This document shows, one piece after another, positions 1 to 38,949 of a stretch of 38,949 bases of DNA. The DNA comes from a virus. Both the position numbers and the translations under genes were made by a program. The stretch lies in UHGV virus genome UHGV-0097970; one strand, written 5' to 3'. The notes under the pieces are model-generated. The model was not told the origin of the DNA, did not search any database, and was given only the letters and a program-made list of their open reading frames with translations. Position 1 is the first letter of the stretch. Each line of letters begins with the position of its first letter.

Positions 1-6
1 AACCTA

Positions 7-69
7 ATGATGAATGACGGTAAGCAACAATCTACCTTTTTGTTTCACGATTACGCGCAATACCCCTGA
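7..69 (+). pseudogene. sbcB: Displaced native 5' end of sbcB (exonuclease I), first 16 codons then phage sequence and stop
   Basis: Translation from ATG at 7 gives MMNDGKQQSTFLFHDY, matching the ExoI N-terminus as I recall it, then AQYP-stop after the att core. Confidence 0.75.
43..55. repeat. attL core
   Basis: tttcacgattacg is identical to 38871-38883; flanking 28 bp aligns with 4 mismatches (caaTctaccttTTtGttt vs caaCctaccttCCtCttt). Confidence 0.75.
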
Positions 70-110
70 GAACCGCAATGAACAAGGGTTTCATGATTTG
101 TGATTTTAGT

Positions 111-131
111 TTGGTACGCAATTTGGTACAC
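111..131 (+). promoter_or_regulatory. Putative integrase arm-type binding sites (left arm), TTGGTACGC and TTGGTACAC
   Basis: Two direct 9-mers here; three more copies of the same motif at 38666-38708 next to int. Confidence 0.45.
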
Positions 132-538
132 AACACTATTTTCACTTCAGCGGGTAGTCATCAAACTCACCATAACGAGCATCGTTGATGATGTATGTGA
201 TCACCACAAATATCACATCTGGACTAGTTCCGTCTTCATGCGCAGGTATCTGTTCACGCCTCCCTTTCTGCAAATCCTAAAGATGAGATTTTGGGGTTTT
301 GGGATATCTTTTTATCCTCAGTTCTCTATCCATTCTACAAAGCAGTAATGAACCATCACCGTGTGATAGTGAGGCATCCGCTACGTTAAGCGCAGAGAAA
401 TGATGCAGTGGTGGTCGGACTGGATTGATGAAAAGGTGTAGCAACCAACATTGCTATATCTCAGATAGCACAAAGCCTTGCAATCCAGTGCAAAGCTTTG
501 TGTGTCTCAGTTTTGTCTCATCGGTAATTATGTGTTCG

Positions 539-838
539 CTACGATGCAAGAATCCATACCAATAAGCATCCGATAATTGGGAAAGAAAAATCCAACAAAC
601 TTCCCACATCCCACACGCGTGGATCAAAACCTCCCCACCACGGCATGTTGACACGTTTCCCTTTCCCAAACTTTTCTATCCAGCGATATTCTGCCTGGGT
701 GTGTTCACGCGCAATGAAGAACGTACAACCGGCTATCGCACCGTAAGCCCAGTTTCCGGTAAAAATACCAACCAGTACCTGAGCCGCAAAAGCGCAAAGC
801 GAGTGAAGAAATGGAGTGACATCAATGCTCTTAATCAT
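539..838 (-). CDS. Small predicted membrane protein, hypothetical; possible moron
   Basis: 99-aa ORF with hydrophobic segments ([44 protein letters not shown]); its ATG overlaps the tailspike stop (ATGA at 835-838), implying co-transcription; sits between tailspike and attL. Confidence 0.5.
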
Positions 839-2892
839 GAAACTTCCCCGTTGGTTGAAAATATGGCTCCTCCAACTCCAAGTGTATTTCGTGTTGTGCT
901 CAACCTAAGAGGGCTGGAGTCAGAATTAGAATATCCTGTAGCAGAAATAAAAGATCCTCCACTAATAGTCAACTGCGGAACATCGGCTATATCTGAATAA
1001 GTTCTGTCAGCAACAGTATTATTTATAGCCACATATGATCCAAAAAAACTTCTTATTGTTTGGTTTTTAACTTTACTTCCTTCAATGGTTATCCTACTAC
1101 CACAGTCGGCAATAAATCCTGAATCTGCATCCAGCGTTGCATTCATAAAAGAAGCTTCAGATCTCTCTACATCAATCCATCTAATATCTTTTGTGGGATT
1201 TGCACCAAATACATGACAAATATTAGAGTTAAACCTTACACCATCTTGGAGGTGCATTAATTTTTTTATATCTGTACCCCATAGCCTTGGAAAATTAACA
1301 GATGCTCCTGCATGGCAATCAAATCCCAGCTCAGCCCCTGAGATATCTACAGCCTTTCCTGAAATAACAGCACCAGTGTCTGCATTAACGGCTGTTCCAC
1401 AATTGCGCATATCATTACCAGCAACATCAACACAACCCGCACCATCAATACGCACACCAAGTGCACATCCATAAAAACCTTTTTCAATATTTGGTTCAAG
1501 GACTTTACCACTTGTTTCTGCATCACTTTCTTCAACGTCATGTCGTCTTGCATCAACATATGCTGTATGAATGCAGGTTAATCCACGATATGAGCAATGT
1601 ATAGTTTTATGGTCGCGTATATTAACATTTGAACCATCTCTTACATTCCATCCTATATAACAATAGCTTGCACTTGACCCCTGAAAATCTGCTTTAACAT
1701 TATAAATACAATTAACTGACGCAACCGTACTCTCTGTGCACCGTTCAAACTTGCTTACAGGCATTGATGCCTTGACATTATTTACCAGTTGCAGGGAAGA
1801 GTATCTGCTATAAGAAAAATCACATACGTAATACCCTTCTGGCATATATGCAGCAACACTTTCCTCATCAGGAGCACATCCGGTATGATATGCACTAATT
1901 TTTGCACCAAAGCTACCATGAATTCCAACGTAGAACTTTCGAGCACCTGAATACGGATAGAAATTAAGTTCAGCTTTTTGAGTTACAATAAATGCACAAA
2001 CATCGCTATCATCTCTATTTTCTTCAATCTGAATAGCAAATACAGGACTTTTTGCTGCATCGCAAATGTAAAATAAATATTTGTATTCGTAATACGTCCT
2101 AACAGTTTTAGTAAACAAACTGGTATCAGAGAAAACCACTGAGTCTTCTGATATTATTTTAATCCATGATAAGTCACATCCTGCTGAAATTTCTATTTGC
2201 TCATTGAGCACAAAACCGGAAAGAATTTTAATTATGCAAAAATCAATGCCATTTTTCCATAGTGGACGCAGTGCAACAGCTGAGTTTAGAGCATCACTAA
2301 TAGATTTAAAATTACCATATTCCCCAACTGTTATTGTGAATGCATACCTGGAATTAAATACTGCGGCACTCTCTCCAGAGTTAATAGCTGCAGATATCAT
2401 GTCATAATTTGATATAAAATCATTTGGCGTGATTATTTCTGCGTTTTTATTGTGCTGTGTTCTAAGTTTTGAATTTACATGAACACTTTTAACTGCAATA
2501 CGGGAGTCGTCAACAAGTATTTCATTACCCTCTGTTGCTAACTCTTGTCTTAACTGATCCGGGTCATACTTCAGCACATTCGGAAAATAGAACTGCTGTG
2601 CACCATACGCATCATAAACAGCCATAGAATGGCCTTGCACAGTTACGAACTTGGCAATCTGTCCGTTATATACCGGGTAACCAGCAGTGTTAATGATGAT
2701 TGGTTGAGAAACAGGAACGTGAGAGCCGTCTTCGTTCTCCACATAAACCTGAATCTGGTTTTCAGGATTTACCGGGTCAGTGTCAATTTTACCGATATAA
2801 ATTTTGCCATTAGCTACGGCTTTAAAAGAACGCGCCATAGTGAAGAGTTGCGAAGGCATTGATACGATCACATTGGCTGTAATGTCTGTCAT
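835..2892 (-). CDS. Tailspike protein with P22 gp9-type N-terminal head-binding domain and divergent receptor-binding domain
   Basis: N-terminal ~110 aa ([13 protein letters not shown]...KYDPDQ) closely matches the P22 tailspike head-binding domain from memory; remaining ~570 aa are unrelated to P22 gp9 and AT-rich. Confidence 0.9.
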
Positions 2893-3024
2893 TTAATTTG
2901 CTCCAGATACAAGGAATGGCCGCAGCATGGCTACGGTTGGAATTTGTTACATACCTAAACGGTACGATTGTTGATTTGTACAGTGGGTTTTACGATGCCA
3001 TTCCACCCATTTGGTGAGGCATTG

Positions 3025-3282
3025 ATGATGTACAGCAAATACGATGAGGCGCAGTTCCACTTGAGGCTTACACACGAGTTGCACGCTAAGATTAAGCAGC
3101 GTGCAAAAATGAATAACAGGTCTATCAATTCCGAAATTGTGGCTACGATGGAAGAATCACTCTCCAAACCATCACCTGTAAGCGGGTATCGTGATGAAGA
3201 AGAAAGGCTGGCCTCATTAATCTCGGAACGAGTAAAAGAAGTTGCGGCTGAAATTCTAAGGAAAGAAAAAACCCGCGATTAA
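3025..3282 (+). CDS. mnt: Mnt-like ribbon-helix-helix repressor
   Basis: SKPSPVSGYRDEEERLA matches P22 Mnt SKPSPVTGYRNDAERLA; RHH N-terminus FHLRLTHELHAKIKQRAKMNNRSINSEIV; start chosen at internal ATG after GGTGAGG RBS. Confidence 0.8.
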   Translation: MMYSKYDEAQFHLRLTHELHAKIKQRAKMNNRSINSEIVATMEESLSKPSPVSGYRDEEERLASLISERVKEVAAEILRKEKTRD

Positions 3283-3297
3283 GCGGGTTTAGTTTTC
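3265..3297. terminator. Bidirectional intrinsic terminator between convergent mnt and antirepressor genes
   Basis: aaaaaaCCCGCgattaaGCGGGtttagtttt: GC stem flanked by A-run and T-run, so U-tract on either strand. Confidence 0.6.
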
Positions 3298-3308
3298 ATT
3301 ATAAAATG

Positions 3309-4037
3309 TTACGCCACATTTGAGCCATGTAGTAGGTGTTGTAGTGCTTTAACGCCTTCAGAATTGTAACGGAACGCCTCTACCTGTTTGCTGGAATGCG
3401 CCGATTTATCCAGGAAGAACTTCCCGTACTGCTCAGTTTTGAGGTTGTTTGCGTTAGCAATGCGACCAATCTTGTTGGCCGTTACTCCAAGCTGCTCTGC
3501 AACCTCCCCTGCTGAGTAGTAATGCTCTTCTATTGCCGGAAGAGGTATTGCATTAAAACCAACGAGCGGGTTGATTATACTTGCTGCCGCTGTCTGCTTT
3601 GCCTCAGGCGCAAGATTTGGCATCAGATCGAACAGATTGGTAACAGCTTCAACCGTCATTTTCAATGTTCGCGCTTGACGATACTCAACAAGTCCACTCG
3701 CTGATTTACCGCTTTTAATGTGCGCTTCTTGCATACTTTCAAGTTGGTCTACCAGTGAGCGGCGAACGGCTTTTGACTCGCGAGCGGCAACTCGCAATGC
3801 TTGCTTGATTGACATCTCAATGATAACCATCGAAGTTTTGTTCGCTTTTTGCACTACACTTTTTGTGTAGTGCTCTCCATCCAATTCATCTTCAATTTTC
3901 TCGATGAATTTGTTATTACGAACCTCCGGCTCACCGCACTGTCTACGAGCCTGATTTACCATCTCAAGAAGGCGCTGGCTGTCAATGGTTTTATCCGTGA
4001 CAACGGATCCGATGTTTGCTACATTCTTAAAAGTCAT
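3309..4037 (-). CDS. Putative antirepressor-module / phage regulatory protein
   Basis: 242-aa ORF downstream of ant; AAGGAA RBS 7 nt before MTFKNVANIG; C-terminal region looks like a DNA-binding segment (SAGEVAEQLGVTANKIGRIANANNL). Family assignment from memory only. Confidence 0.45.
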   Translation of the reverse strand: MTFKNVANIGSVVTDKTIDSQRLLEMVNQARRQCGEPEVRNNKFIEKIEDELDGEHYTKSVVQKANKTSMVIIEMSIKQALRVAARESKAVRRSLVDQLESMQEAHIKSGKSASGLVEYRQARTLKMTVEAVTNLFDLMPNLAPEAKQTAAASIINPLVGFNAIPLPAIEEHYYSAGEVAEQLGVTANKIGRIANANNLKTEQYGKFFLDKSAHSSKQVEAFRYNSEGVKALQHLLHGSNVA

Positions 4038-4075
4038 TAGGCATTCCTTATGTGGTAGTAAGGGTGTGACATAGG

Positions 4076-4106
4076 CCGCCAGCAGCACACTGGCGGTTTT
4101 CTTTTT
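4076..4106 (+). terminator. Intrinsic terminator on + strand, antisense to the ant operon
   Basis: CCGCCAG-cagcaca-CTGGCGG followed by ttttcttttt on the + strand. Confidence 0.5.
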
Positions 4107-4125
4107 GCGCCGTCCGGCGCACCAA

Positions 4126-4752
4126 TCAATGAATCCATTCCTCGCCGCGCAGTTTTGCCAGCATTGGCTGAGCGTTCTTTACGACAAAATTGTTGGTATC
4201 AAGATTCTTCATTTCACGAAGAAGTGATTTCTTGGTTTCTTCTGACATATAGCGAGTCTCATATGCGATATCGTAAATCCTTCCTGAAAGCTCAGAACAA
4301 ATTTGCTTCATTCCTGGGTAGATGTGTTTGCACATTTGTTGACTCTTCTCCATCCACAATTGTAAGTAGCAGAGATTAACCAGTTCTTCGTCAGTAAACT
4401 GTTTTGCAATCGGTGAGCATTCTGCCTGCCGATCCAAAATATCCAGCACCCAGCGGCGGAACTCTTTGGCTACCGGAGTGCGAGCAAACATCGCGATTAG
4501 GTGGGCACCGCGTAGTGAGAAAACTCGCACTTTTTTGCGATAATTTCCTGAGGTACTCACTTCGAGTACCTGAGTCATTCCAGCGCTAAACTCATCGCTA
4601 TACTTGTTATAAATCATTGTTACTGCACGACTATTTGCGTATTTAAGTGCAGATGCAATATTAGATGATGTAAACCAAACACCATGCATATCACGGGTGG
4701 GCACCAACTCAACTCCGTGGAAGTTGTATTCTGATTTTGCTACAATATTCAT
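4126..4752 (-). CDS. ant: Antirepressor Ant (Bro-N domain)
   Basis: MNIVAKSEYNFHGVELVPTRDMHGVWFTSSNIASAL...FSLRGAHLIAMFARTPVAKEFRRWVLDIL is a Bro-N-type antirepressor N-terminus; start set at internal ATG preceded by GGAAA; follows arc. Confidence 0.8.
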   Translation of the reverse strand: MNIVAKSEYNFHGVELVPTRDMHGVWFTSSNIASALKYANSRAVTMIYNKYSDEFSAGMTQVLEVSTSGNYRKKVRVFSLRGAHLIAMFARTPVAKEFRRWVLDILDRQAECSPIAKQFTDEELVNLCYLQLWMEKSQQMCKHIYPGMKQICSELSGRIYDIAYETRYMSEETKKSLLREMKNLDTNNFVVKNAQPMLAKLRGEEWIH

Positions 4753-4825
4753 GTTAGTTTCCTTGCATACGGTTACTGACATAGAGGCCCGGTTTGTGTT
4801 CGCGCACTGCCGGGCTTCACTATTT
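4743..4825 (+). ncRNA. Candidate sar-like antisense RNA covering ant RBS/start and arc 3' end
   Basis: Extended -10 TGcTACAAT at 4728-4736 (+) inside the ant start region; + strand hairpin GCCCGG...CCGGGC (4777-4805) followed by T-rich tract over the arc stop. Confidence 0.3.
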
Positions 4826-4999
4826 TTATTGGATGACAACATCGCCCTTTGCCTCAAGTTTCATCAATAACTCCATTCGATAAGCTATCTCTGCCTGAAT
4901 TGACCTATGGCATCTTTTTGCTGATTCGCGGATATGTGAATCAACCTTTTCTGTAAAACGAACCTGACGCGGCTTGATGGAAGATATCTTTTCAGTCAT
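4826..4999 (-). CDS. arc: Arc-like ribbon-helix-helix repressor (57 aa, below ORF-track cutoff)
   Basis: My translation: MTEKISSIKPRQVRFTEKVDSHIRESAKRCHRSIQAEIAYRMELLMKLEAKGDVVIQ; AGGAG RBS 6 nt upstream; RHH pattern as in P22 Arc; directly upstream of ant. Confidence 0.7.
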   Translation of the reverse strand: MTEKISSIKPRQVRFTEKVDSHIRESAKRCHRSIQAEIAYRMELLMKLEAKGDVVIQ

Positions 5000-5098: not shown

Positions 5099-5740
5099 AT
5101 GAATTTTGACGATCAATTCCCATCAAGAGTATCTCTGGCAAGACAGTCCAGGGGTATGACGCAGGCGCAGTTGTCAAAATTAGCTGGTGTTGTTCAACGT
5201 CAAATAGCTGCATACGAGGGTGGTGAGGCTAAACCACGGCTTCGGGTATTGCAGGCATTAGCCAACGCATTAGGTACTACGGCTGAGTGGTTAGCTCTAG
5301 GTGAAGGTCAGGGTCCGGGAACAAAAAACGTCATGCCTGACGTTCTGGTAAAGCAAATACCAATCCTCAAACTAGATGAAGTTATGCATTACCTAAACAC
5401 AGGTGAACATTCATCGTCTAGATTTCATCCGGCAATATACAATGTTGGTGACTCTGCATTTGCATTGACTATTGAAGGTGAAGCTATGACTACAAGTTCA
5501 GGTATTAGCTTTCCCAGAGGATCAGTTGTCACGTTCAGCCCTCTAGTAAAAGCTAAAAGCAAAGATTATGTAATAGCATCATTGGATAAAGAGCAAATAT
5601 TGAGCTTCAAGCAGGTTTACATTGGTGAAATAGAGACAAACTTAGTATCCCTAAACCCAATGTATCCTAATATTCTTGTTAGAAATGAAGATGTTAGTAT
5701 TTTGGCAACCGCAGTTTACCTTGAAATCCCGTTGCTTTGA
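5099..5740 (+). CDS. CI/LexA-family repressor (HTH_XRE + S24 fold) with Ala at the nucleophile position
   Basis: N-terminal HTH (GMTQAQLSKLAGVVQRQIAAYEGGEAKP); C-terminal region aligns by eye to lambda CI S24 domain (DSAFALTIEGEAM vs DSAFWLEVEGNSM; LVSLNPMYPNI vs LQPLNPQYPMI); the GxSM serine is Ala. Confidence 0.8.
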   Translation: MNFDDQFPSRVSLARQSRGMTQAQLSKLAGVVQRQIAAYEGGEAKPRLRVLQALANALGTTAEWLALGEGQGPGTKNVMPDVLVKQIPILKLDEVMHYLNTGEHSSSRFHPAIYNVGDSAFALTIEGEAMTTSSGISFPRGSVVTFSPLVKAKSKDYVIASLDKEQILSFKQVYIGEIETNLVSLNPMYPNILVRNEDVSILATAVYLEIPLL

Positions 5741-5804
5741 TATCCTTTAGGAAGCGACACATTATCATCCGGTGTTCTGCTCAAAACTAAGGAGTGGCTA
5801 CTCA

Positions 5805-6443
5805 ATGAAAAAAATAGATATATATAGCGATACATCAGCCTATGTCATAGGCTCATTGGGTTTTTTAATTTTTTTTGTTTGGCAGTACCAGTCACTATCT
5901 CCAGGATGGCGATTTTTGGGGATGTCTTTGATATCACTTGGTGCAGGAATAGCAACGCAGGTGTTGATGTATCTCTTTAATGGATGGATCTCAAAAAGAG
6001 TTGAGAAAAAAAGAGCTACTTCAATATGTAGAAGCCTAGCTATTCCAGAAGACTCTACAGATCAGGATGATATTGCAAAATGTTGGCGGTATATGATTGC
6101 AAGATACTCAAATGAGTTACTGGCAAACAGACTGTCCGACTTAATCGGGATCGTAGTTACCTCTGTTGGAACAATCATCAGTATAGGGATATCAATTTGG
6201 TATGTCGGGATGATTGTCTATTTTGTTTGGAATAGAGACTTCAATGAACCTTCCATTCTTTTTATACCTTTATTTTTCAGGGTATTAGCATTCATATGTG
6301 AGTTATTGCTCTCTTTTTTCTGCAATGTTTTGTTCAACAGATACCCAGGTGAAGCAAGAAAGTTTAATAAAAACTATGATGAGTTAAGGAGAACAGATCC
6401 TTTTCTATCAAGCAAAGAGTTCCGCGATTCCATTCGCAATTAA
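5805..6443 (+). CDS. Multi-pass inner-membrane protein, hypothetical (SieA position)
   Basis: Four or more hydrophobic helices; very AT-rich relative to neighbours; TAAGGAG RBS before ATG at 5805 (track ORF starts 5772); lies between gp16 and immI module like P22 sieA; no sequence similarity recognised. Confidence 0.6.
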   Translation: MKKIDIYSDTSAYVIGSLGFLIFFVWQYQSLSPGWRFLGMSLISLGAGIATQVLMYLFNGWISKRVEKKRATSICRSLAIPEDSTDQDDIAKCWRYMIARYSNELLANRLSDLIGIVVTSVGTIISIGISIWYVGMIVYFVWNRDFNEPSILFIPLFFRVLAFICELLLSFFCNVLFNRYPGEARKFNKNYDELRRTDPFLSSKEFRDSIRN

Positions 6444-6464: not shown

Positions 6465-8306
6465 TTAGCGATCAGTTGCATCATTGGCAAGTATTGGTCT
6501 GATGGCATTTGCGGCGTTATTCAGCGCTCTTTCATAGGCTGGCGTTCCAGCTTTAGTGTTTGCCAGACGTAAGAGCGCATTCCTTGCTGCTTTGGACTCA
6601 TACAAGCGCATCATTGCACCAAAACCAGCCTCAAGCCCCATTGATACGCCAAGAGTCGCAGTTGCGCCAATCGTCCTTATCCTGTTGGCTTGCGATTGCC
6701 CCGTCTGAGTTACTACATTTGCGGTGTCTGACCTTGCTGTTTGCTGTAGAACTTCATTAAGAGCATCAAGTTCTTTCATGTGCTTTCCAGAAAAAATAGT
6801 GTTGTAAATTTCACCGCCTGACTGAGATTTCAGCTTATTAACTTCAGTGATGAACTTGGCTGGAGAGTCACCGGCCTTTTCCGCTATTTTGCTGACGTAA
6901 GCTGCACGCATAGCATCTTTCCCTTTATCATCCAGTGCGCTCCAGATTCGTTTCACGTCAGATGGTTTTCTGCTTAATACAACGGTATTTATAAGTTCAG
7001 GACTGGCTTCACTGCTTGCCTTGTTGAGTTTGTTAGCAATGTTTTTATTAAGCACCTTATTATAAACGTTTGCATAATCGGAATTTGCTTTAAGGTATTT
7101 TGCTGCGTCTGATGCACCGAGGTTTTTAGCAACTGCGTTACGAAGGTCTTTTGACATTGCATTCTCTACCATATTGGTAGCTGCTTTTGCCTGGTTGGGG
7201 AAGACCATAGCATCTCCCTGAACATTAGATCTAAATGCTGTTCTGTGCTGACGCAAGAGATCAAACGTAACATCCAAATCAGTTGCAGGGTTTGCTAATT
7301 CTTCACGTAGGTTACGCAAGGATGTAAGCAGGCTTTGATTGGCTGAAGTCCCAAGCCGTTCCTGTCTTGCGATCGCTGTATTCAGAGCATTCATGGTATT
7401 TGTGGTATCAACTGCGGCATTACCCATTTTATTGGTGACGTCATTGATAACAGCGCCAGCGGCATCCTTCCGCCCCCTTAACGTGGTGGTCAGAGATTTC
7501 ACCACATCATCAGGGTTGTACTCACCAAAACGGTCAAAATAATTTCTTACCAGCTTACTACGCGTTGCATATTGCTCCGCTCTCTTTGAGCCTGTCCCGA
7601 GCAAAGCCCCCTCGGCATCCTGAGTAAGGCCGCGAGTGAAAGCATTTTTCGGCGGGATAACATCAGATGTCATTGGTGTCACTCCCATCGATTCTGATGT
7701 GGCAATTTTCTTCGCCACTTCTGGCGCAATATCACCTTTTATAGCCGTTATTCCACGCCCTATTCCCTTTGCTGCTGCGGAAAGAACCCCCTGAGCGGCA
7801 AGGTTAACTCCGGCATTTTTGGCTGCATTTTGTGCGAAATCGCCTTTCTGGTTTGCGGCTTCTGCCAGTGATCCAATAGCCATGCTTCCTGCCGTTCCAA
7901 CTCCTGGAACTAAATACCCGCCAATTGTTTCTCCAGCTTGCGCATAAGGGTCTGTCGGTCGATCGACAGGGCGATAAACATCATCCAAAACCTTGGGGCC
8001 ACCAAGCCCCTGGCTGATTGCATTAATCAGACTTGCGCCACCCTGCAATACGTCAAATGGTATGTTTACCAGACCACGACCAGCCTGCTCTGCAATTTGC
8101 CCTGCACTTTGACCACCTGTGAGCCAATCGCCAGCTTTTTGCATCAATGATGGTTCTTCACGTGCTGGTTCATTATTGGCCTGATTAACTGTTTGTTGCT
8201 GAACAGCCTGACCAGCAAAATACTCATCAATGGCGGTGCCAATATCTTCCGTGCTCGTACCATCAGGGAAGGTAAATGTCTTACCGTTTGCAGTTACTTT
8301 CATCAT
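6465..8306 (-). CDS. Ejection protein, P22 gp16-like
   Basis: [33 protein letters not shown] resembles P22 gp16 N-terminus; size and synteny (last of 7-20-16). Confidence 0.8.
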
Positions 8307-30379: not shown

Positions 30380-30400
30380 GAGCATACCTCTTGTGGTCAT

Positions 30401-31535: not shown

Positions 31536-31540
31536 AAACA

Positions 31541-31780: not shown

Positions 31781-31820
31781 ATCAGCAGGACGCTGGTAGC
31801 CAAACGGAACAGATTGGCAG

Positions 31821-31862: not shown

Positions 31863-32055
31863 CCAAAGAGTAGTTGGCTTTGGGATTGGATGAATGAGCA
31901 GGCTGATGCTCGACCAATGTATAAACAGCGCTCATGGCAAGCAGTAACCAATCTGCGCCTCAAGACAGCGTCACTGGTAGTGCGGGCGCTCTAACCAGTA
32001 AGCCGGGGTTCAGCGCCGGCCATCCAATCGCCAAAGTCAATCATCGGAGGTCAAC

Positions 32056-32355: not shown

Positions 32356-32363
32356 GGTGATAT

Positions 32364-32615
32364 ATGGAATTTCATGAAAGTGCGATTTATGATTTTCGCG
32401 CTAACGCAAATTCAGTAAAACCACAGCCAATTGCAGTTCTTTTTAAAACAATGGGTGCGTGGGCTGTTTTATGCTTCGCCGCTGATGACACTGACGCAAG
32501 AATGGCAATAGGCCAAGAGATGGAGATGGACCCGACAAACGATGAATTCATAATTTATGGCGCTCCATCTAATTACTTACTTGATACCTGCAACATTTAC
32601 AACAAGGCTGCCTGA
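32364..32615 (+). CDS. Hypothetical pL-operon protein
   Basis: 83-aa ORF 9 nt after N. Confidence 0.45.
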   Translation: MEFHESAIYDFRANANSVKPQPIAVLFKTMGAWAVLCFAADDTDARMAIGQEMEMDPTNDEFIIYGAPSNYLLDTCNIYNKAA

Positions 32616-32837
32616 TGGTGGCCTTTATTTTTAGCATAAACAACAGAATAAACACTGCACTGTGCATTCATTCCAGCGAGTGAATACACGGAGCAATGTC
32701 GCTCGTAACGAAACAGGAGCCGACTTGTTCTGATTATTGGAAATCTTCTTTGCCCTCCAGTGTGAGGGCCTTTTTATATGCATACCAATAACGCTTCACT
32801 CGAGGCGTTTTCGTTATGTATAAATAAGGAGCACACC

Positions 32838-33002
32838 ATGCAATATGCCATTGCAGGGTGGCCTGTTGCTGGCTGCCCTTCCGAATCTTTACTTGAACGA
32901 ATCACCCGTAAATTACGTGACGGATGGAAACGCCTTATCGACATACTTAATCAGCCAGGAGTCCCAAAAAATGGATCAAACACTTATGGCTATCCAGACT
33001 AA
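32838..33002 (+). CDS. cIII: CIII (FtsH inhibitor)
   Basis: MQYAIAGWPVAGCPSESLLERITRKLRDGWKRLIDILNQPGVPKNGSNTYGYPD appears identical to lambda CIII; AAGGAG RBS. Confidence 0.95.
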   Translation: MQYAIAGWPVAGCPSESLLERITRKLRDGWKRLIDILNQPGVPKNGSNTYGYPD

Positions 33003-33084
33003 ATTCACTATCGCCACTTTTATTGGCGATGAAAAGATGTTTCGTGAGGCCATCGAAGCCTACAGAAAATGGAGGTCAAAATGA
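32971..33084 (+). CDS. kil: Kil-like small protein
   Basis: MDQTLMAIQTKFTIATFIGDEKMFREAIEAYRKWRSK overlapping the cIII 3' end as lambda kil does; from memory only. Confidence 0.5.
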   Translation: MDQTLMAIQTKFTIATFIGDEKMFREAIEAYRKWRSK

Positions 33085-33269
33085 TTCCGGTAGAACTGGC
33101 GAAAACTCCAGAATTAAGTCGATTAAAAAGAGAATATCACATTGCTGAGGCTCGTTACTGGCGTAAAGCGGGAGATAAATCAAAGAAACAACTTTGTTTA
33201 TGGCAGGCTCAAAGAGAGCGCATGAATGAGCGCGAATTTCTTTCCGCCCCATCCGAATTACCATTCTGA
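33081..33269 (+). CDS. Hypothetical protein
   Basis: 62-aa ORF MIPVELAKTPELSRLKREYHIAEARYWRK, GGAGG RBS, ATGA overlap with kil-like stop. Confidence 0.4.
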   Translation: MIPVELAKTPELSRLKREYHIAEARYWRKAGDKSKKQLCLWQAQRERMNEREFLSAPSELPF

Positions 33270-33277
33270 GGCAAATT

Positions 33278-33958
33278 ATGGGAACTGCGACATTAATACT
33301 CGGTGAATCTGGCACCGGAAAATCAACCAGCATGAGAAATATCAATCCAGAGGAAGCAATACTTATAAAACCAATAGGCAAGCCGCTACCATTTAAATCA
33401 AAAGACTGGCTTGCATGGGATGCCAGAGCAAAAAAAGGAACCGTAGTTACCACTGACAAATGGGACGTAATAGTTGCCGCAATTAAGCGTGCTCACGAAT
33501 ACGGGAAAAGAATCGTTATTGTTGATGACTTCCAGTATGTGATGAGCAATGAGTTTATGCGCCGCTCAGAAGAAAAATCGTTTGATAAATTTACTGAGAT
33601 AGGCCGCCACGCATGGGAGGTGATTAAGGCTGCACAGGATGCACCTGATGACCTGAGAGTCTATTTTCTTGCACACACCGAAGAAACCCCTATGGGGCGC
33701 GTGAAAATGAAAACTATCGGCAAAATGCTGGACGAGAAAATCACTGTCGAAGGCATGTTTACTATAGTTCTTCGCACCCTTACCCGTGATGACCAGTTCT
33801 TTTTCACCACAAAAAACAACGGTGCAGACACTGTTAAATCCCCAATGGGAATGTTTGACTCCAATGAGATTGATAACGATCTCTCTTTCGTCGATGCCAC
33901 TGTTTGTGATTACTACGGCATCAATAATGTTCATCAAATTAAGGAAAACGCCGCATGA
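33278..33958 (+). CDS. P-loop ATPase, Sak4-like recombination protein
   Basis: Walker A GESGTGKST at residues 9-17; Walker B-like IVIVDDF; 226 aa; followed by SSB-like gene. Confidence 0.65.
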   Translation: MGTATLILGESGTGKSTSMRNINPEEAILIKPIGKPLPFKSKDWLAWDARAKKGTVVTTDKWDVIVAAIKRAHEYGKRIVIVDDFQYVMSNEFMRRSEEKSFDKFTEIGRHAWEVIKAAQDAPDDLRVYFLAHTEETPMGRVKMKTIGKMLDEKITVEGMFTIVLRTLTRDDQFFFTTKNNGADTVKSPMGMFDSNEIDNDLSFVDATVCDYYGINNVHQIKENAA

Positions 33959-34542
33959 GCAACGTGATTTTTACTTATAACGAAGAAGCAGCACTGACCG
34001 CAGGGCAAGGTGGTTTTATTAACGAAACTGGCGCTCATATCATTACCATTACTGAAGCAGAACTAAAGCAATCAGAAAAAGGAGCCAAATTTATTGAGTT
34101 TTCTGGCGAATCCGACGACGGACGTAAAATCCAATATCTTAGCGTCTGTGTTCAGAAAAATGACGGAACGGAAAATAAATTTGGCGCAAATGTCGTCCAC
34201 GCCATGATGGGGTGTGCCGGGATTGGACAATTAACGCAACATATGGTTTCCGCCAGTAAATTTGTTGCTCCTGAATTTCATGGAAAGAAAATCGGGTTAG
34301 TGCTCCAGAAAGTATTAACCACAAACAAAAAGACTGGCGCAGACAGCTACCAGATGGAAATACGCATCCCGTTTATTGCAAAAACAGGTCAAACCCTTAA
34401 AGAAAAGGCGGAAGGCAAGCAACCAGAAACTATCGCCAACATGGTTGCCAGCCTCAAAGATAAAGACAATCGCTCTAAAAACGTAAGCCAGAATCATGCA
34501 GATGATTATGGTTACAGCCAGAACGATTACCCTCCTTTCTGA
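33955..34542 (+). CDS. Putative phage ssDNA-binding protein
   Basis: 195 aa, start overlaps ATPase stop; acidic aromatic C-terminal tail ...DDYGYSQNDYPPF like SSB tails; family not confirmed. Confidence 0.45.
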   Translation: MSNVIFTYNEEAALTAGQGGFINETGAHIITITEAELKQSEKGAKFIEFSGESDDGRKIQYLSVCVQKNDGTENKFGANVVHAMMGCAGIGQLTQHMVSASKFVAPEFHGKKIGLVLQKVLTTNKKTGADSYQMEIRIPFIAKTGQTLKEKAEGKQPETIANMVASLKDKDNRSKNVSQNHADDYGYSQNDYPPF

Positions 34543-34565
34543 TTACTGAAAATAAGGCTCCCATT

Positions 34566-34862
34566 ATGCCAGCGCCTCTGTATGGTGCGGATGACCCGCG
34601 CCGCTGTTCCGGCAATTCCGTATCGGAGGTGCTGGATAAATTCAGAAAAAACTACGATCGGATAATGTCGCTACCGCAGGAAACGAAAGAGGAAAAGGAA
34701 TTTCGCCATTGTATATGGCTTGCAGAGAAAGAAGAACGCGAGCGAATTTACCAGACATCAATCCGACCATTCCGCAAAGCCACATATACCCACTTCCCTG
34801 AATATATCGACCCGCGCCTGCGTAATTACCGCTCACGCTATGGCGCTATCAGTAATGACTGA
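34566..34862 (+). CDS. Hypothetical protein
   Basis: 98-aa ORF. Confidence 0.4.
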
Positions 34863-34872
34863 GGAATTTACC

Positions 34873-35037
34873 ATGAGAGGACTTGCATACAATCCCGGCA
34901 TTCTTCCGGCAGAAATGATTATTCGCCAACGCGTAAAGCCAATGCCATCGAGAGAGGAATTGCTTAAGAGAAATAGTTTCGGTTCTGTTAATGACAACAA
35001 ATATCTGAATGCGATGTGGCGCAAAGGAGGCAACTAG
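34873..35037 (+). CDS. Hypothetical small protein
   Basis: 54 aa from internal ATG of track ORF 34720-35037, GAGGAA RBS. Confidence 0.4.
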
Positions 35038-35570
35038 TGAGCAAGATTGACTATCAGGCACTGCGTGAGTTAGCAAAACAGGCAACACAGGGCGAATGGG
35101 TCGCATTTATTTCGCCGGGCAAATACGGCACGTACGCCGTACACACACCAGGTGATAATCATCACGGAGATATTGTCGACTGGCCAGGATTCGACGAACA
35201 GAAAAACGCAGAGAACAACGCTCGTTATATCGCAGCTTTCAACCCTGAAGTAGTACAGGCGCTGTTGGATGAACGAGAAGCCCAAAGCAAACGCATAGCA
35301 GAACTGGAAGCACGGGAAATAAAACCAGCCAAAGGTGAAGTTCTTGTCGTTGTTTCTGGTTTTACTGGTTGCGGAAAAAGCGCCATAGCCGGGGAAATAG
35401 AAATCGCGATGAAGGCTATTGGTGTACCGGTTCAGTGGACTAATGGCGATGCGGAAAAGCGTATGACAGGAGCTGACTGGCTGACAGCGATTGAGATGTA
35501 CAAACCAACAGTGCGCATCGTGGAAGTTAATGTGCCACGCGCCGCTGGCATTCGCATCAAAGGAGAGTGA
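35037..35570 (+). CDS. Ead/Ea22-like protein
   Basis: KIDYQALRELAKQATQGEWVAF motif typical of Ea22-like proteins; GTG start after AAGGAGG. Confidence 0.65.
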   Translation: MSKIDYQALRELAKQATQGEWVAFISPGKYGTYAVHTPGDNHHGDIVDWPGFDEQKNAENNARYIAAFNPEVVQALLDEREAQSKRIAELEAREIKPAKGEVLVVVSGFTGCGKSAIAGEIEIAMKAIGVPVQWTNGDAEKRMTGADWLTAIEMYKPTVRIVEVNVPRAAGIRIKGE

Positions 35571-35575
35571 GTGAT

Positions 35576-35773
35576 ATGGATAAAAATACCCCTGCTTACT
35601 GGAGTTTATCACTTGATACCGAATGCCCAAAATGCGGTCACAATTTCGATCTGCTTTGTGATGCTGATTTTTGGGAGTTTTCGGGAGCAAAACAGGCGTG
35701 TGAAGAAATAGAAGGTTACGAAACATGCTGCCCAGAATGCAACCATGAATTTAAAACAGATTTTGTGTATTGA
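35576..35773 (+). CDS. Small zinc-ribbon protein
   Basis: CPKCGHNF...CCPECNHEF two Cys pairs; ATG 8 nt after AAAGGAGAG. Confidence 0.5.
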   Translation: MDKNTPAYWSLSLDTECPKCGHNFDLLCDADFWEFSGAKQACEEIEGYETCCPECNHEFKTDFVY

Positions 35774-35783
35774 AGCATAGCAA

Positions 35784-36743
35784 ATGACCACCTTTACCAA
35801 AGAACAGCTAATTGATCATATTAATGATCGCAAAGATGTCCGTCAGAGAATGTTGGATACCGCAACGATTTCTTCTGGATTCCGAGAATATCTTGAAAGA
35901 GAGCTTGCTACCGATCAGATTGCCCTAGCTTCGCTGGAAGCTGAACCTGTTCTGTATCAGTCCTGCACTCGCCCCACCTGGAATAGCGGTGTTCCGTGGA
36001 CGGAATGGAAAGAACGTAGTCGTGAGGGCTACGAAGACGATTTGCGCTTTACAGACACGCCTGACCATGCCGGTTGGATAAACAAATGTCGAAAACTATA
36101 TACCACTCCGCCAGCGCCGATAGCGTTAGAGGCCATTGAAAACGCAATTGAATACATCCGCAGTATCGCTTTTCACATCAATGAAGACGATTACCACGGC
36201 AAGCATATTGCGTATTTCATGCGACAAGCATTGGCCTGGCTGGAAGGGCATTCATGCAGCGACGACAGACTGGGTAAAGCCGAGAATCAAACAGTACACG
36301 GCAACCAGGCTGCCGAATCCAATCGCGGTAATGAGTGGACCGGCAATCCTGATATTGATAACGCCATCATTATGCTCGATCGCATAGATACGCTGGAAAG
36401 TTGCGATGATAACCGTATTGAGGCGGTTAAAGCTGTTTTGCGTAAACTGGCTGGCAACTCTCCGGTAACTCAGGATAGTTGGATAAGCTGTAGTGAGAGA
36501 ATGCCTGTAATCGGCGAGCTAAATTGGAGAACTAGTTTTCCTTTGCTGATTACGTGTGAGATCGGCGTTATACCAGCTTATTACGGCTTTGTGAGCGTTA
36601 ATGGGAATAAGCATTATGGTTTTATGGAGAGTCTTAAATACGGAGACGATAACGGCAACCATCCTCAAACTAATGAATATGGTCTGATTAGCAATGTCAC
36701 ACACTGGATGCCACTACCAGAACCGCCGCAGGAGGCAAAATGA
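35784..36743 (+). CDS. Hypothetical protein with DUF551-like C-terminal domain
   Basis: C-terminus WISCSERMPV...THWMPLPEPP resembles DUF551 from memory. Confidence 0.5.
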   Translation: MTTFTKEQLIDHINDRKDVRQRMLDTATISSGFREYLERELATDQIALASLEAEPVLYQSCTRPTWNSGVPWTEWKERSREGYEDDLRFTDTPDHAGWINKCRKLYTTPPAPIALEAIENAIEYIRSIAFHINEDDYHGKHIAYFMRQALAWLEGHSCSDDRLGKAENQTVHGNQAAESNRGNEWTGNPDIDNAIIMLDRIDTLESCDDNRIEAVKAVLRKLAGNSPVTQDSWISCSERMPVIGELNWRTSFPLLITCEIGVIPAYYGFVSVNGNKHYGFMESLKYGDDNGNHPQTNEYGLISNVTHWMPLPEPPQEAK

Positions 36744-37000
36744 TGGATGTAAAAGAGAAGGTTTTGCAGGTGATGCGTTCCCGTTCTGCCCTGCAAGAGA
36801 AAGCTCTCGGCGGGGAATATCCATTCACGATAGCAACCTGGAATCTGCGGTTGGCAATGGAGAAGGAATTTCCTGATGAAGAATGGCGTTCGGCAGATTT
36901 GCGCAAAATTCTTATGGAGCTGGCTAAAGACGGAGCAGTATCCAAAGATACCTATGCCAGCCGGATTGGTCAGGCGGTATGGAGACTGGAGGTGCGGTAA
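36740..37000 (+). CDS. Hypothetical protein
   Basis: 86-aa ORF with ATGA overlap to the upstream gene. Confidence 0.45.
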   Translation: MMDVKEKVLQVMRSRSALQEKALGGEYPFTIATWNLRLAMEKEFPDEEWRSADLRKILMELAKDGAVSKDTYASRIGQAVWRLEVR

Positions 37001-37038
37001 TGGCTAACCTGCAACTTGCCGTCAAATGTGAATAACAA

Positions 37039-37066
37039 TCCTCGCACTCGCGGGGATTTCTTTTAT
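37039..37066 (+). terminator. Intrinsic terminator (first of tandem pair)
   Basis: TCCTCGC-act-GCGGGGA then TTTCTTTT. Confidence 0.55.
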
Positions 37067-37069
37067 CTG

Positions 37070-37094
37070 AACTCGCTACGGCGAGTTTTGTTTT
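37070..37094 (+). terminator. Intrinsic terminator (second of tandem pair)
   Basis: AACTCGC-tacg-GCGAGTT then TTGTTTT. Confidence 0.65.
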
Positions 37095-37107
37095 ATGGAG
37101 ATGATAA

Positions 37108-37275
37108 ATGCACTTCCGAGTCACAGGTGAATGGAATGGAGAGCCATTCGACAGGGTTATCGAAGCAGAGAACATCAACGACTGCTATGACCACTGGATG
37201 ATATGGGCGCAGATAGCACATGCAGACGTAACCAATATTCGAATTGAAGAACTGAAAGAACACCAAGCCGCCTGA
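37108..37275 (+). CDS. Hypothetical small protein (55 aa; not in ORF track)
   Basis: My translation: MHFRVTGEWNGEPFDRVIEAENINDCYDHWMIWAQIAHADVTNIRIEELKEHQAA; GGAG 7 nt upstream; bracketed by terminators. Confidence 0.4.
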   Translation: MHFRVTGEWNGEPFDRVIEAENINDCYDHWMIWAQIAHADVTNIRIEELKEHQAA

Positions 37276-37290
37276 TGGCGGTTTCTTTTT
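37267..37290 (+). terminator. Intrinsic terminator
   Basis: GCCGCC-tgat-GGCGGT then TTCTTTTT. Confidence 0.6.
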
Positions 37291-37305
37291 GCCTGGAGAA
37301 TTAAG

Positions 37306-37497
37306 ATGACCGATACCAGCCTGATTCCTGAGAAAGAAGTGATGAACAAGCTCGGTGTTTCATCACGTCAGACAATCTGGAACTATACCAAACGGCATGG
37401 ATTTCCGAAGCCAGTCAGAACCCACCCCAAATCATACCTTCGCGAAGCTGTTGAAGGGTGGATTCTTAACGGTGGCGTTAATCAGAAATGCTCCTGA
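37306..37497 (+). CDS. AlpA-family excisionase / DNA-binding regulator
   Basis: EKEVMNKLGVSSRQTIWNYTKRHGFPKPVRTHPKSYLREAVEGWI fits the AlpA/Xis pattern. Confidence 0.8.
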   Translation: MTDTSLIPEKEVMNKLGVSSRQTIWNYTKRHGFPKPVRTHPKSYLREAVEGWILNGGVNQKCS

Positions 37498-38656
37498 TGT
37501 GCCAGAACAATTTATCAGCGTGAAGCTCATACGCTTTGCGCTGAGCCTCTATCCAATCGTGTTTATTGTATACGGACATTATCCCGCCAAGTTCATGACC
37601 GAGCATTCGCTCAGTAACATGAGGCTCGACATTCATCTCGGACAGACGTGTAACAAGCGTTCTTCTGAAATCATGTGTTCGCCAGTAACCTATATCCATC
37701 CCTCCCCTTATTCTATTTACGAATCGGTTGGCTGCAGCGATGCTGATCGGTTTGTTTATGTCTTCTCCAGGGAAAAGAACATCATTGTACGTTGTCATGG
37801 CCTTTTCGAGAAAAGGCTTAATTTGTTCGAAGATTGGACGACGGATAACATTACCCATCTTGCTATGCTCTTTCGGTACGGTCCATACGTTGTCCAGCAG
37901 GTCAAATTCTGTCTTTGTTGCCAGCCTAAGCTCTGAGAGCCTCGCCCCCCACAGCATAAGCATCTGATGAAGGAGCTTATTTGACGTAGACGCACGGCTT
38001 CTTTCAATAGCAAGCCAAATCTTAGCCAGTTCGTGATACGACAGTACCCGATCCCCTACCTCAGCGCGGGAGCCGAAGTCCCTTGGCTGGATGCTCATAA
38101 TTGCGCAACTATCTATCAACTGACGCCGCATGCACCAACTAATTGCTGATCTTAGTTGACTTAGCACCTGCCTTGCTCGGCGTGGATTATCTCTTTCTTC
38201 TTCGGTAAGCAGGTCAACCCATTGCTTAACCGTGATAGAAGATGCCGGACGATTAGGAAATGCGTCATGCATGCGCTTCATAACCGTTGATCGGTAAAGT
38301 GCCTGGGTCTTTTCTCTGAGAGTTGTAGAGACGTAGTTGTCGAACCAGTAGTCGAGACACTGGGCGACCGTCATGGAGTTCTCCACCTTCTCTTCAAAAT
38401 AAGTGCGTGGATCCGTTCCTGAGAAATAGAGCTTTCGCAAGTCAGCAGTGATCTGTCTGGCATCCTTCAAAGACAGGGATGGGTATCGACCAAGCCCAAG
38501 TCGATTAGGCTTGCCATGCCAGCGATAGCGGTACTGGAACTGGATGACCCCCTTCGGTGAAATTCGTACGCTGAGGCCATCGGCATCAGCCACTTCTTGT
38601 GGGCCCGAATATGGTTTACCATAAATAGTACGAAGTTTTGTGTCGCTTATAGCCAT
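37478..38656 (-). CDS. int: Tyrosine integrase
   Basis: 392 aa; N-terminal arm-binding-type region; C-terminal catalytic signature HDFRRT ... GHELGGIMSVYNKHD with Tyr; adjacent to attR. Confidence 0.95.
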   Translation of the reverse strand: MAISDTKLRTIYGKPYSGPQEVADADGLSVRISPKGVIQFQYRYRWHGKPNRLGLGRYPSLSLKDARQITADLRKLYFSGTDPRTYFEEKVENSMTVAQCLDYWFDNYVSTTLREKTQALYRSTVMKRMHDAFPNRPASSITVKQWVDLLTEEERDNPRRARQVLSQLRSAISWCMRRQLIDSCAIMSIQPRDFGSRAEVGDRVLSYHELAKIWLAIERSRASTSNKLLHQMLMLWGARLSELRLATKTEFDLLDNVWTVPKEHSKMGNVIRRPIFEQIKPFLEKAMTTYNDVLFPGEDINKPISIAAANRFVNRIRGGMDIGYWRTHDFRRTLVTRLSEMNVEPHVTERMLGHELGGIMSVYNKHDWIEAQRKAYELHADKLFWHIRSISD

Positions 38657-38665
38657 AAATAATAT

Positions 38666-38708
38666 TTGGTACGCTCAAAAATAATGGTTTGGTACACATC
38701 TGGTACAC
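38666..38708 (+). promoter_or_regulatory. Putative integrase arm-type sites (3 copies) overlapping the int promoter region
   Basis: TTGGTACGC (38666-38674), TTGGTACAC (38689-38697), TGGTACAC (38701-38708); same motif as 111-131. Confidence 0.45.
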
Positions 38709-38837
38709 AATATCACATGGACAACAGCGCACAGTAAACAACTATATTTGACGTTCGTAGACATACTCAGGTGAAAAAAGGGTTGTTTTTCGAGTTATAA
38801 CAGACAGTTAATTAACTACAGTGGACAATGCTAGACA

Positions 38838-38949
38838 ATGACAGACACAGATAAGCAACCTACCTTCCTCTTTCACGATTACGAAACCTTTGGAACGCAC
38901 CCCGCGTTAGATCGCCCTGCACAGTTCGCAGCCATTCGCACCGATAGCG
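38838..38949 (+). CDS. sbcB: sbcB (exonuclease I) 5' end, reconstituted with phage-encoded first 10 codons; partial, continues beyond window
   Basis: MTDTDKQPTFLFHDYETFGTHPALDRPAQFAAIRTDS; from the att core onward matches the ExoI N-terminus as I recall it, while the first ~10 codons differ from native MMNDGKQQST. Confidence 0.8.
   Translation, partial: MTDTDKQPTFLFHDYETFGTHPALDRPAQFAAIRTDS
38871..38883. repeat. attR core
   Basis: tttcacgattacg identical to 43-55. Confidence 0.75.

Follow-up and report, generated by a model that had tools for sequence, protein, structure and literature searches.

Attachment sites that lie within genes, tRNA genes included, carry a replacement gene end according to Campbell's rule. 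In the active-lysogeny switches Listeria phi10403S/comK and Bacillus SPbeta/spsM the prophage likewise resides within a host coding sequence. Integration disrupts comK, which becomes whole again solely upon excision, and the same has been reported for spsM with SPbeta. The prophages e14 and phage 21 in icd duplicate the displaced end of their target and regenerate an intact gene (PMC6379469, e14/icd); there, as at tRNA-gene sites, the 3' end is replaced and the host promoter is kept, whereas at the sbcB locus described here the 5' end is exchanged, and consequently promoter and translation start must also be supplied by the phage. In Rac/ttcA the att site lies in the 5' end of the host gene as well, and the N-terminus differs between lysogen and non-lysogen, with a reported phenotypic consequence (carbenicillin fitness)(PMC6379469), but integrase, target gene and phage type are different. 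Prophages that replace one end of a gene are thus already known, both for the 3' end (e14/icd) and for the 5' end (Rac/ttcA).

The closest relatives of the present integration module are found in the serotype-converting Shigella flexneri phage Sf101 (KJ832078) and the Stx2c phage 2851, which share the site in sbcB, an identical 13-bp core and the position of attP beside int. The published attP core of both phages, which integrate into sbcB, is CGTAATCGTGAAA (other strand), and Sf101 Int was reported to be 99% identical to 2851 Int. Furthermore, the Sf101 attP contains a surrogate ORF of the same type, beginning with MTGTDKQPTFLFHDY. Compared with Sf101 and 2851 only cargo and mosaic differ: the window, i.e. 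the whole stretch of 38,949 nucleotides analyzed here, contains no oacB O-acetyltransferase, no stx and another tailspike, and Sf101 covers just 44% of its first 25 kb. In the accessible parts of the Sf101 and 2851 papers sbcB is given as the site without the rebuilding of its 5' end by the phage being spelled out, and a search of the literature other than the original 2851 paper (PMC2583581) yielded no explicit statement of it.

An earlier note on this DNA had proposed, from the letters alone, a prophage inside the sbcB coding sequence with the same 13-bp core in sbcB-like reading frames at both ends. The features of the two ends are as follows.

1-42, + strand: host DNA, last 6 bases 5' of sbcB and native codons 1-12 (ATG at 7); K-12 identity 41/41
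7-69, + strand: truncated native sbcB start, a 20-codon ORF, MMNDGKQQSTFLFHDYAQYP, which stops in phage DNA (translation)
43-55, + strand: attL core copy TTTCACGATTACG, sbcB codons F13 H14 D15 Y16 and the first base of E17
56-135, + strand: P' arm with putative arm-type repeats TGGTACRC at 112-119 and 124-131 (repeat search)
37306-37497, + strand: excisionase-like HTH protein, convergent with int and overlapping its 3' end (phrog_66, E 1.9e-8)
37478-38656, - strand: tyrosine integrase with arm-DNA-binding domain (PF13356, E 8.2e-18; PF00589, E 7.5e-17)
38657-38837, + strand: P arm and int-sbcB' spacer, 181 bp, with putative arm-type repeats at 38667-38674, 38690-38697 and 38701-38708
38838-38870, + strand: phage replacement sbcB 5' end, ATG and 10 further codons (MTDTDKQPTFL), present in the Sf101/E212 attP
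38871-38883, + strand: attR core copy, an exact copy of TTTCACGATTACG
38884-38949, + strand: host sbcB resumes (codons E17 on) and is ended by the window edge; 65/66 versus K-12

The core is present in exactly two copies in the window, both on the + strand, and the extended repeat of 28 bp (28-55 versus 38856-38883) contains four mismatches, just as the note had read it. The 41 bases 5' of the left core are identical to the 5' end of K-12 MG1655 sbcB, and the 66 bases 3' of the right core follow K-12 sbcB past the core with a single exception. The flanks correspond to K-12 sbcB codons 1-12 and 17-38, which places attB within the sbcB 5' end, interrupted within codons 13-17, and the prophage measures 38,828 bp from core to core. 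The core codons (F13 to the first base of E17) encode the catalytic Asp-x-Glu exonuclease motif. When the inner arms were joined via the core, a single colinear alignment to the attP of the E212 virion genome was obtained (96.1% over 796 nt), and the same arms were colinear with the attP of the Sf101 virion genome (93.7% over 799 nt). The published core is matched exactly at both prophage ends and in the Sf101 and E212 attP, and the Stx1a phage record LC744178 annotates a 13-bp 'duplication due to insertion' at the matching place.

By itself a 13-bp repeat is within chance expectation, since 49 different 13-mers repeat on the + strand of the window, and one could suppose that the two copies arose by chance or through misassembly, with no true insertion in the window. 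The repeat becomes decisive because of its context, namely the K-12 sbcB flanks and the attP rebuilt from the inner arms. This exact reconstruction of attB and attP from the junctions refutes the chance or artefact reading; moreover, the same int-sbcB junction was found in 582 of the 5426 complete E. coli genomes surveyed, and site-specific integration at this place has been established experimentally in published work. The probability left for it is practically negligible. Both checks named in the note, agreement of an uninterrupted sbcB with the left-end codons and the right-end downstream sequence, and use of the repeats as the actual recombination junctions, were borne out.

The integrase is identical to Sf101 Int at 391 of 392 positions, and via this match it belongs with the integrases of the 2851/Sf101-type module (Sf101, 2851, HK544 and mEp234 Int). 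In strain C4 the gene beside int that is equivalent to the excisionase-like ORF is annotated as an HTH regulator, and in the present prophage both the int and the xis ORF are intact. The P' arm contains a tandem TTTGGTACRCAA repeat. The motif TGGTACRC occurs six times in the window (1.4 copies expected by chance), and five of the six copies lie in the att arms, all on the + strand (three in the P arm, two in the P' arm); GTAC-centred repeats in the spacer are conserved across genera. The predicted arm-type sites flank the core on both sides, as in a lambda/P4-like attP architecture. The int promoter, and any promoter serving the rebuilt sbcB, must likewise lie in the 181-bp spacer.

At the left end the native start is kept and runs into phage DNA and then a stop, as predicted; the equivalent of this 20-codon ORF carries no gene annotation in the related lysogen E66. 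At the right end the predicted fusion of a phage start to the rest of sbcB, one codon shorter and with several substitutions, was likewise found, except that the ORF MTDTDKQPTFLFHDYETFGTHPALDRPAQFAAIRTDS starts at 38838 and not at 38839. It is in frame with the host part and open to the window end. The core lies within the ORF, the phage arm provides an in-frame substitute and a full-length ORF results, so that the chimeric ExoI comprises 474 aa compared with 475 aa for the native protein, with changes confined to residues 2-9. The catalytic Asp/Glu codons are preserved by the phage-supplied 5' end. In lysogen C4, PGAP/RefSeq annotates an intact 1425-bp sbcB encoding a 474-aa ExoI with no pseudogene call, and this protein is collinear with crystallised ExoI, from which it differs solely at the extreme N-terminus and at a few scattered residues. 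Upon reading of the sequence the Shine-Dalgarno element before the surrogate ATG is weak, and so is that of the native gene.

We therefore favor, with a probability of roughly 85%, the insertion of a P22-like prophage into sbcB by a tyrosine integrase, with a phage-borne 5' end that rebuilds the ExoI gene. This reading is carried by the junctions, the reconstructed attP and attB, the identity of the integrase, the intact chimeric ORF and the coding-type conservation of the surrogate end described below. In mechanistic terms, the prophage would be inserted by its own integrase via conservative site-specific recombination of attP with attB inside sbcB. The attP adjoins int; putative arm-type Int sites flank its core, and its int side bears the surrogate sbcB start. 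Because of this arrangement, integration strands the native promoter and start on the 20-codon stub at attL, while at attR the phage-borne start is fused in frame with the remainder of sbcB, giving the 474-aa ExoI ORF. By rebuilding full-length sbcB the phage could thus exploit a highly conserved target and still leave the gene whole. An active-lysogeny switch of the comK/spsM type was dismissed, as a complete in-frame sbcB ORF is present at attR while the prophage is integrated.

Relatives of the integrase were surveyed as well. Int relatives with 40-99% identity from about 15 genera lie divergent to full-length sbcB at a distance of 171-243 bp (mostly 176-181 bp), and all 25 readable int-sbcB loci contain an in-frame start (ATG, TTG or GTG). 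In every lineage the start codon is located 8-12 codons 5' of the core in the correct frame and the segment is free of stops. The segment QPTF(L/Y) is conserved among the integrase relatives and varies mainly at third positions: for the phage-side Q-P-T-F codons, the per-position entropies amount to 0/0.43/1.44 (T codon) and 0/0/0.76 (F codon), and this third-position bias resembles that of the host-side codons. Since in-frame starts are always kept and variation is biased towards third positions, selection for coding seems to act on the replacement end, although the loci from other genera are not fully independent phylogenetically. Judged from this comparative survey, 5'-end replacement would be old and widespread, extending over Enterobacterales, Orbaceae, Photobacterium and Parendozoicomonas. 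The geometry of int-sbcB' recurs, with a tRNA gene as target, among Int relatives with 50-56% identity: there a divergent tRNA-Arg(CCU) has its 5' end 193-194 bp away from int. Such loci correspond to the int/tRNA-Arg/attL region of argW (tRNA-Arg CCU) Stx2a phages, for instance VT2phi_272.

The sbcB-likeness of the phage side might also originate only from the need of Int for similar attP and attB sequences at the crossover, with incidental coding potential. Indeed, the 15 bases directly left of the core are identical between attP and attB at 11 positions, as for core-type Int sites, and some of the core-adjacent similarity could be due to Int core binding instead of coding. Further out no likeness to attB is needed, yet the in-frame start is kept in every lineage, and the concentration of near-core variation at third positions is the signature of a protein and not of a DNA site. 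As a full explanation, Int binding is consequently very improbable, and coding selection on the surrogate end remains the preferred reading.

The window represents one complete P22-like (Lederbergvirus-type, lambdoid-regulated) prophage, whose gene set was complete according to Pfam and PHROG profile matches:

277-444, - strand: UmuD/HumD-like gene remnant (phrog_10470, UmuD-like, E 7.7e-8)
539-838, - strand: 99-aa protein of unknown function, 3' of the tailspike gene (phrog_1443, E 9e-54)
835-2892, - strand: tailspike with P22-type head-binding N-terminal domain (PF09008, E 1.4e-66; phrog_5662, full length)
2968-4857, mixed strands: immI-like region (PF03869 Arc; phrog_1726; phrog_245; Bro-N and P22AR_C)
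2968-3282, + strand: Arc/Mnt-like regulator of the immI-like region
3309-4088 and 4126-4857, both - strand: two antirepressors of the immI-like region
5099-5740, + strand: second repressor-like gene, HTH and S24-peptidase (PF01381, PF00717)
5772-6443, + strand: SieA-like membrane protein (phrog_7745)
within 6465-20048, - strand: ejection proteins (gp16, gp20 and gp7 analogues), gp14, tail needle, gp10 and gp4 (full-length PHROG matches)
within 6465-20048, - strand: coat, scaffold, portal, large and small terminase (full-length PHROG matches)
20742-23016, - strand: lysis cassette (holin, endolysin, Rz) and Q-like antiterminator
within 27137-31198, mixed strands: replication genes (DnaB-like helicase, O-like initiator), CII-like and Cro-like genes
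30461-31198, + strand: CI/C2-type repressor
31239-37201, + strand: early-left operon with N-like antiterminator, Sak4-like annealase, SSB and unknowns

The virion module is of the P22 type, comprising portal, scaffold, coat, gp4/gp10/gp26, ejection proteins and the P22-head-binding tailspike. The closest records are the Lederbergvirus phages JEP4, CUS-3, E212 and Sf101; in a search of the 5426 complete E. coli genomes and a phage collection, no record reached 80% coverage of either window half or of the first 7 kb. The prophage is a new mosaic of known modules. In strain E66, PGAP marks a HumD pseudogene at the place equivalent to 277-444. The + strand ORF 100-348 lies directly 3' of the stranded native sbcB promoter and could have been activated by promoter capture. 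This idea was rejected, since neither Pfam nor PHROG matched the ORF and the opposite strand carries the UmuD/HumD-like pseudogene here; the ORF is probably spurious.

If the rebuilt sbcB is transcribed, its transcript has to begin in prophage DNA. The earlier note had ExoI made with a chimeric N-terminus under a phage-derived promoter; the chimeric N-terminus is borne out by the intact ORF, but no promoter-like site in the int-sbcB' spacer outperformed shuffled sequences. A consensus scan of 38400-38949 revealed no sigma-70 promoter, and the best candidate of a weight-matrix scan (-35 TGGACA at 38718, 19-nt spacer, -10 TATATT at 38743) was equalled by 67 of 300 composition-matched shuffles. 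Candidates in the relatives were neither significant nor conserved in position, and 22 aligned int-sbcB spacers shared GTAC-type repeats and no conserved -10 element. Read-through from the early-left operon in the lysogen is unlikely because three terminator-like hairpins (37037-37284) lie at the end of this operon, before xis. With these results, and with O157 papers that write of sbcB 'disruption' or 'occupancy', the rebuilt ORF might be thought to be cut from its promoter and silent or poorly expressed, making lysogens effectively sbcB-deficient (negative lysogenic conversion). A weak promoter score does not mean silence, since in the same scan the native K-12 upstream region scored no better (best 5.96 versus 9.04 in the prophage spacer). 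Moreover, the in-frame start and open N-terminal segment are retained in all readable loci, the mostly synonymous-type variation of the phage-borne codons is not expected for a dead gene, and the C4 annotation treats sbcB as intact. Such insertional inactivation is hence quite unlikely. For the chimeric sbcB we infer transcription that starts within the prophage, with active ExoI as the presumed product.

The observation is real and its structural interpretation supported; site and integrase are already published. Its practical weight is small, as sbcB is a standard prophage and Stx-phage site and belongs to the four Stx-prophage sites for which O157 is routinely typed, and integrase and core are as published. 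Because the rebuilt sbcB depends on a spacer in which the int promoter and the arm-type sites of Int also lie, ExoI in lysogens may conceivably be rewired to the Int/Xis state and hence to induction. The whole clade of sbcB- and argW-type integrases, both with a divergent int some 180-195 bp from the target 5' end, would then be specialised in replacing 5' ends along with their promoters. We regard this as unlikely; if true, the phage would govern ExoI in about 11% of sequenced E. coli, which could bear on ExoI-dependent processes, recombination among them, and on the retron-linked essentiality of sbcB reported for some strains (bioRxiv 10.1101/2020.05.25.114553). Independently of such rewiring, 'occupied sbcB' is not to be read as 'knocked out', because the ExoI ORF is intact in the lysogen and merely has its N-terminus encoded by the phage, a caution that concerns about one in nine complete E. 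coli genomes.

Both ends of the window carry the same 13-bp core within sbcB-like reading frames, as the earlier note had claimed and as direct reading of the frames confirmed. The core TTTCACGATTACG was found exactly at 43–55 (attL) and 38871–38883 (attR) and in no further copy on either strand of the window, and comparison of the 28-bp stretches closing with it gave the proposed four differences between the left and right copies. Starting from base 7, the left end reads ATG ATG AAT GAC GGT AAG CAA CAA TCT ACC TTT TTG TTT CAC GAT TAC G, and the left ORF (7–69, MMNDGKQQSTFLFHDYAQYP followed by a stop) comprises the native sbcB start, which then runs into unrelated phage sequence and a stop, likewise as predicted. 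The right-end ORF begins with an ATG at 38838, continues with MTDTDKQPTFLFHDYETFGTHPALDRPAQFAAIRTDS and stays open to the window end; its phage-borne start (38838–38870) is referred to as the surrogate end and the rebuilt gene as sbcB'. As 49 different 13-mers recur in the window, a 13-bp repeat alone is unremarkable and the case depends on its context. The stretch 88–98 (GTTTCATGATT), located 46 bp inside the attL-side phage arm (P' arm), matches the core's left portion (GTTTCACGATT, 42–52) at 10 of 11 positions; this could be a chance similarity, or the stretch could serve as a secondary core-type site.

As attB reference we used sbcB of K-12 MG1655, which is uninterrupted. The 41 bases preceding the left core were identical to this gene (41/41), and of the 66 that follow the right core, 65 agreed with the K-12 sequence after the same 13 bases; thus, attL-left, core and attR-right together make up attB, and the left-end codons plus the right-end downstream sequence match an uninterrupted sbcB. 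The joined inner arms (attR-left, core, attL-right) gave one colinear alignment to the int-proximal region of the free phage E212 (96.1% over 796 nt) and were also colinear with that of Sf101 (93.7% over 799 nt), and this region is the attP of both phages. Since attB and attP were both rebuilt from them, the repeats are the true recombination junctions. The attP of the free phages already holds the surrogate frame, namely MTGTDKQPTFLFHDYAHPA in Sf101 and MTDTDKQPTFLFHDYAKRP in E212, each followed by a stop. The motif TGGTACRC occurs six times in the window (1.4 expected by chance), and the int-side att arm holds three of these copies and the far-side arm two, all five in a single orientation, which by motif positions would correspond to the classical arm-site layout.

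The core-to-core length is 38,828 bp, and judging from its predicted genes the element between the cores is a complete P22-like prophage.

Gene content of the element, with further features of its left part
Virion genes: tailspike with P22 head-binding domain, three ejection proteins, tail needle, gp4 and gp10 analogues, coat, scaffold, portal, terminase
Late and regulatory genes: lysis cassette, Q, replication genes, CII, Cro, CI
Early-left operon: N first, including a Sak4-like annealase and SSB
Integration genes: excisionase-like gene, tyrosine integrase with arm-binding domain
100–348 (+): ORF without family match; Sf101 counterpart annotated as hypothetical protein Sf101_0017
277–444 (−), about 142–444: UmuD/HumD-like gene remnant just inside attL (phrog_10470, E 7.7e-8)
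2968–4999: immI-like region with Arc/Mnt-like regulator, 57-aa ORF (phrog_10182) and two different antirepressor genes, 259 aa (phrog_1726) and 243 aa (Bro-N + P22AR_C)
5099–6443 (+): second LexA/CI-type repressor-like gene (HTH + S24 peptidase, 213 aa), then SieA-like membrane protein (223 aa)

The closest records were the Lederbergvirus phages JEP4, CUS-3, E212, Sf101 and HK620, covering at most 69% of either window half, and no matching complete E. coli genome was found for the left 7 kb; the prophage thus combines known modules in a new mosaic. The gene pair at 5099–6443 has the ejection genes on one side and the immI-like region on the other, lies on the strand opposite to its neighbours, and may represent a moron for superinfection exclusion or defence that brings its own regulator. 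At the place equivalent to 277–444, PGAP marks a frameshifted HumD pseudogene in the lysogen strain E66.

The sbcB site, the integrase and the core are already known. The integrase shows 391/392 identity to Sf101 Int, the published attP core of Sf101 and the Stx2c phage 2851 is the reverse complement of the window core, and a 13-bp 'duplication due to insertion' is marked at the very same position in the record of an Stx1a prophage. O157 typing uses four standard Stx-prophage sites; one of them, sbcB, was occupied in 26.9% of 346 strains (PMC8309913; also PMC3519850), and in our own survey the int-sbcB junction (at least 80% present) was detected in 582 of 5426 complete E. coli genomes. In the accessible literature, no explicit statement was found of the phage rebuilding the 5' end of sbcB.

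In the lysogen C4, RefSeq annotates the gene downstream of the junction as exodeoxyribonuclease I (ExoI), with 1425 bp compared to 1428 bp in K-12. Lysogen ExoI aligned end to end with the crystallised E. coli enzyme and, besides a few scattered substitutions, only residues 2–9 differ. The reading frames predict the chimeric N-terminus (M)TDTDKQPTFLFHDYETFGTHPALDR as against the native (M)MNDGKQQSTF...; in length, the chimeric protein equals a native one begun at the second Met. The core codes for F13-H14-D15-Y16 and the first base of E17. In the structure of ExoI (DEDDh family), D15 and E17 are catalytic; the crossover thus falls where the gene is most conserved, with every catalytic codon retained.

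An integrase search with one genome per species yielded 35 loci; in 27 of them an Int relative (40–99% identity) is arranged divergently to a full-length sbcB, the genera being Escherichia, Shigella, Buttiauxella, Klebsiella, Erwinia, Pantoea, Tatumella, Rosenbergiella, Serratia, Chimaeribacter, Rahnella, Orbus, Gilliamella, another Orbaceae member, Photobacterium and Parendozoicomonas. All 25 readable loci have an in-frame ATG, TTG or GTG 171–243 bp (mostly 176–181) from the int start, followed by 6–9 variable residues and then (Q)PTF(L/Y)(F/I)HDYETFG. Putative phage-side codons beside the core vary mainly at the third position (entropy at positions 1/2/3 of 0/0.43/1.44 for Thr and 0/0/0.76 for Phe), and the host-side codons show the same third-position-biased pattern. 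For these lineages, which are related, the in-frame starts and the third-position variation argue that the surrogate end has been preserved for what it encodes, beyond any role in Int binding.

Some loci deviated from this arrangement. In E. coli ECMA0423 (L036) and Shigella flexneri (L035) the Int match is limited to the first 107 residues. The former carries a hybrid sbcB start, MTDTDKQS-TFLF, upstream of int (about 2780–2820), in which phage-type first codons precede the native CAA TCT ACC TTT TTG beside the core, suggesting a different crossover, gene conversion or a variant attP; in the latter sbcB is apparently broken (tblastn identity 35–38%). Yersinia pekkanenii (L017) and a second copy in Rosenbergiella nectarea (L026) have an sbcB-like short ORF (e.g. 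MNTVKDKPIHKTFYIGDY...) within 260 bp upstream of int that departs after the core region with no sbcB behind, and could reflect an attP-like site, a tandem insertion or a secondary site. In Klebsiella sp. BIGb0407 (L029), about 11 tandem GTGAACA copies replace part of the arm-site region in the int-sbcB spacer.

A prophage replacing a displaced gene end is of a known kind: e14 supplies the icd 3' end, and Rac, at the 5' end of ttcA, alters the TtcA N-terminus (PMC6379469). The sbcB prophage differs from e14 in replacing a 5' end, at a published site. Its target has a complete ORF while the prophage is integrated, so it is not an active-lysogeny switch of the kind seen at comK and spsM. Four Int relatives (50–56% identity) lie beside tRNA-Arg(CCU) instead of sbcB, in Xenorhabdus, Ca. 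Erwinia dacicola, Proteus penneri and a gammaproteobacterial MAG (L021, L022, L023 and L025), with int at 3001 or 766 and the 5' end of the divergent tRNA 193–194 bp upstream. This geometry equals that of int and sbcB' in the window, and the int/tRNA-Arg/attL region of argW-integrating Stx2a phages matches these loci. The sbcB-type and argW-type integrases thus belong to a single clade that keeps a fixed distance from int to the target 5' end.

The earlier note had further predicted that ExoI is made with a chimeric N-terminus under a phage promoter. An in-frame chimeric ORF, annotated with 1425 bp in lysogen C4 and changed at residues 2–9, agrees with the predicted chimeric N-terminus; for the promoter, the scans gave no supported site. 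A consensus scan revealed no sigma-70 site in 38400–38949 or 1–900. A weight-matrix scan gave a single candidate (-35 TGGACA at 38718, 19-nt spacer, -10 TATATT at 38743) 89 nt before the ATG, which is not above chance, as 67 of 300 shuffles of the 181-bp stretch between int and sbcB' (38657–38837) score as well. The best candidates in 20 relatives were not significant and their distance was not conserved; aligning the same stretch of relatives showed conserved GTAC-type repeats and no conserved -10 element. The native K-12 upstream region scored still lower in the same scan, and weak motifs are therefore not a sign of silence. Read-through from the early-left operon into sbcB' seems unlikely in a lysogen, because three terminator-like hairpins lie at 37037–37284. 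From the geometry, transcription of sbcB', if expressed, must begin in prophage DNA, probably within 37300–38837.

Taken together, the original observation is confirmed and its reading supported apart from the unproven promoter. A wider proposal holds that in lysogens the expression of ExoI is rewired to the prophage's Int/Xis region, and that this integrase clade has specialised in exchanging 5' ends along with their promoters; we consider it improbable, with a chance of roughly one in eight. In some E. coli strains sbcB is essential through a prophage-borne retron-like system, reported without a link to the integration site (bioRxiv 10.1101/2020.05.25.114553), which shows that the ExoI level can matter in prophage-host interactions.
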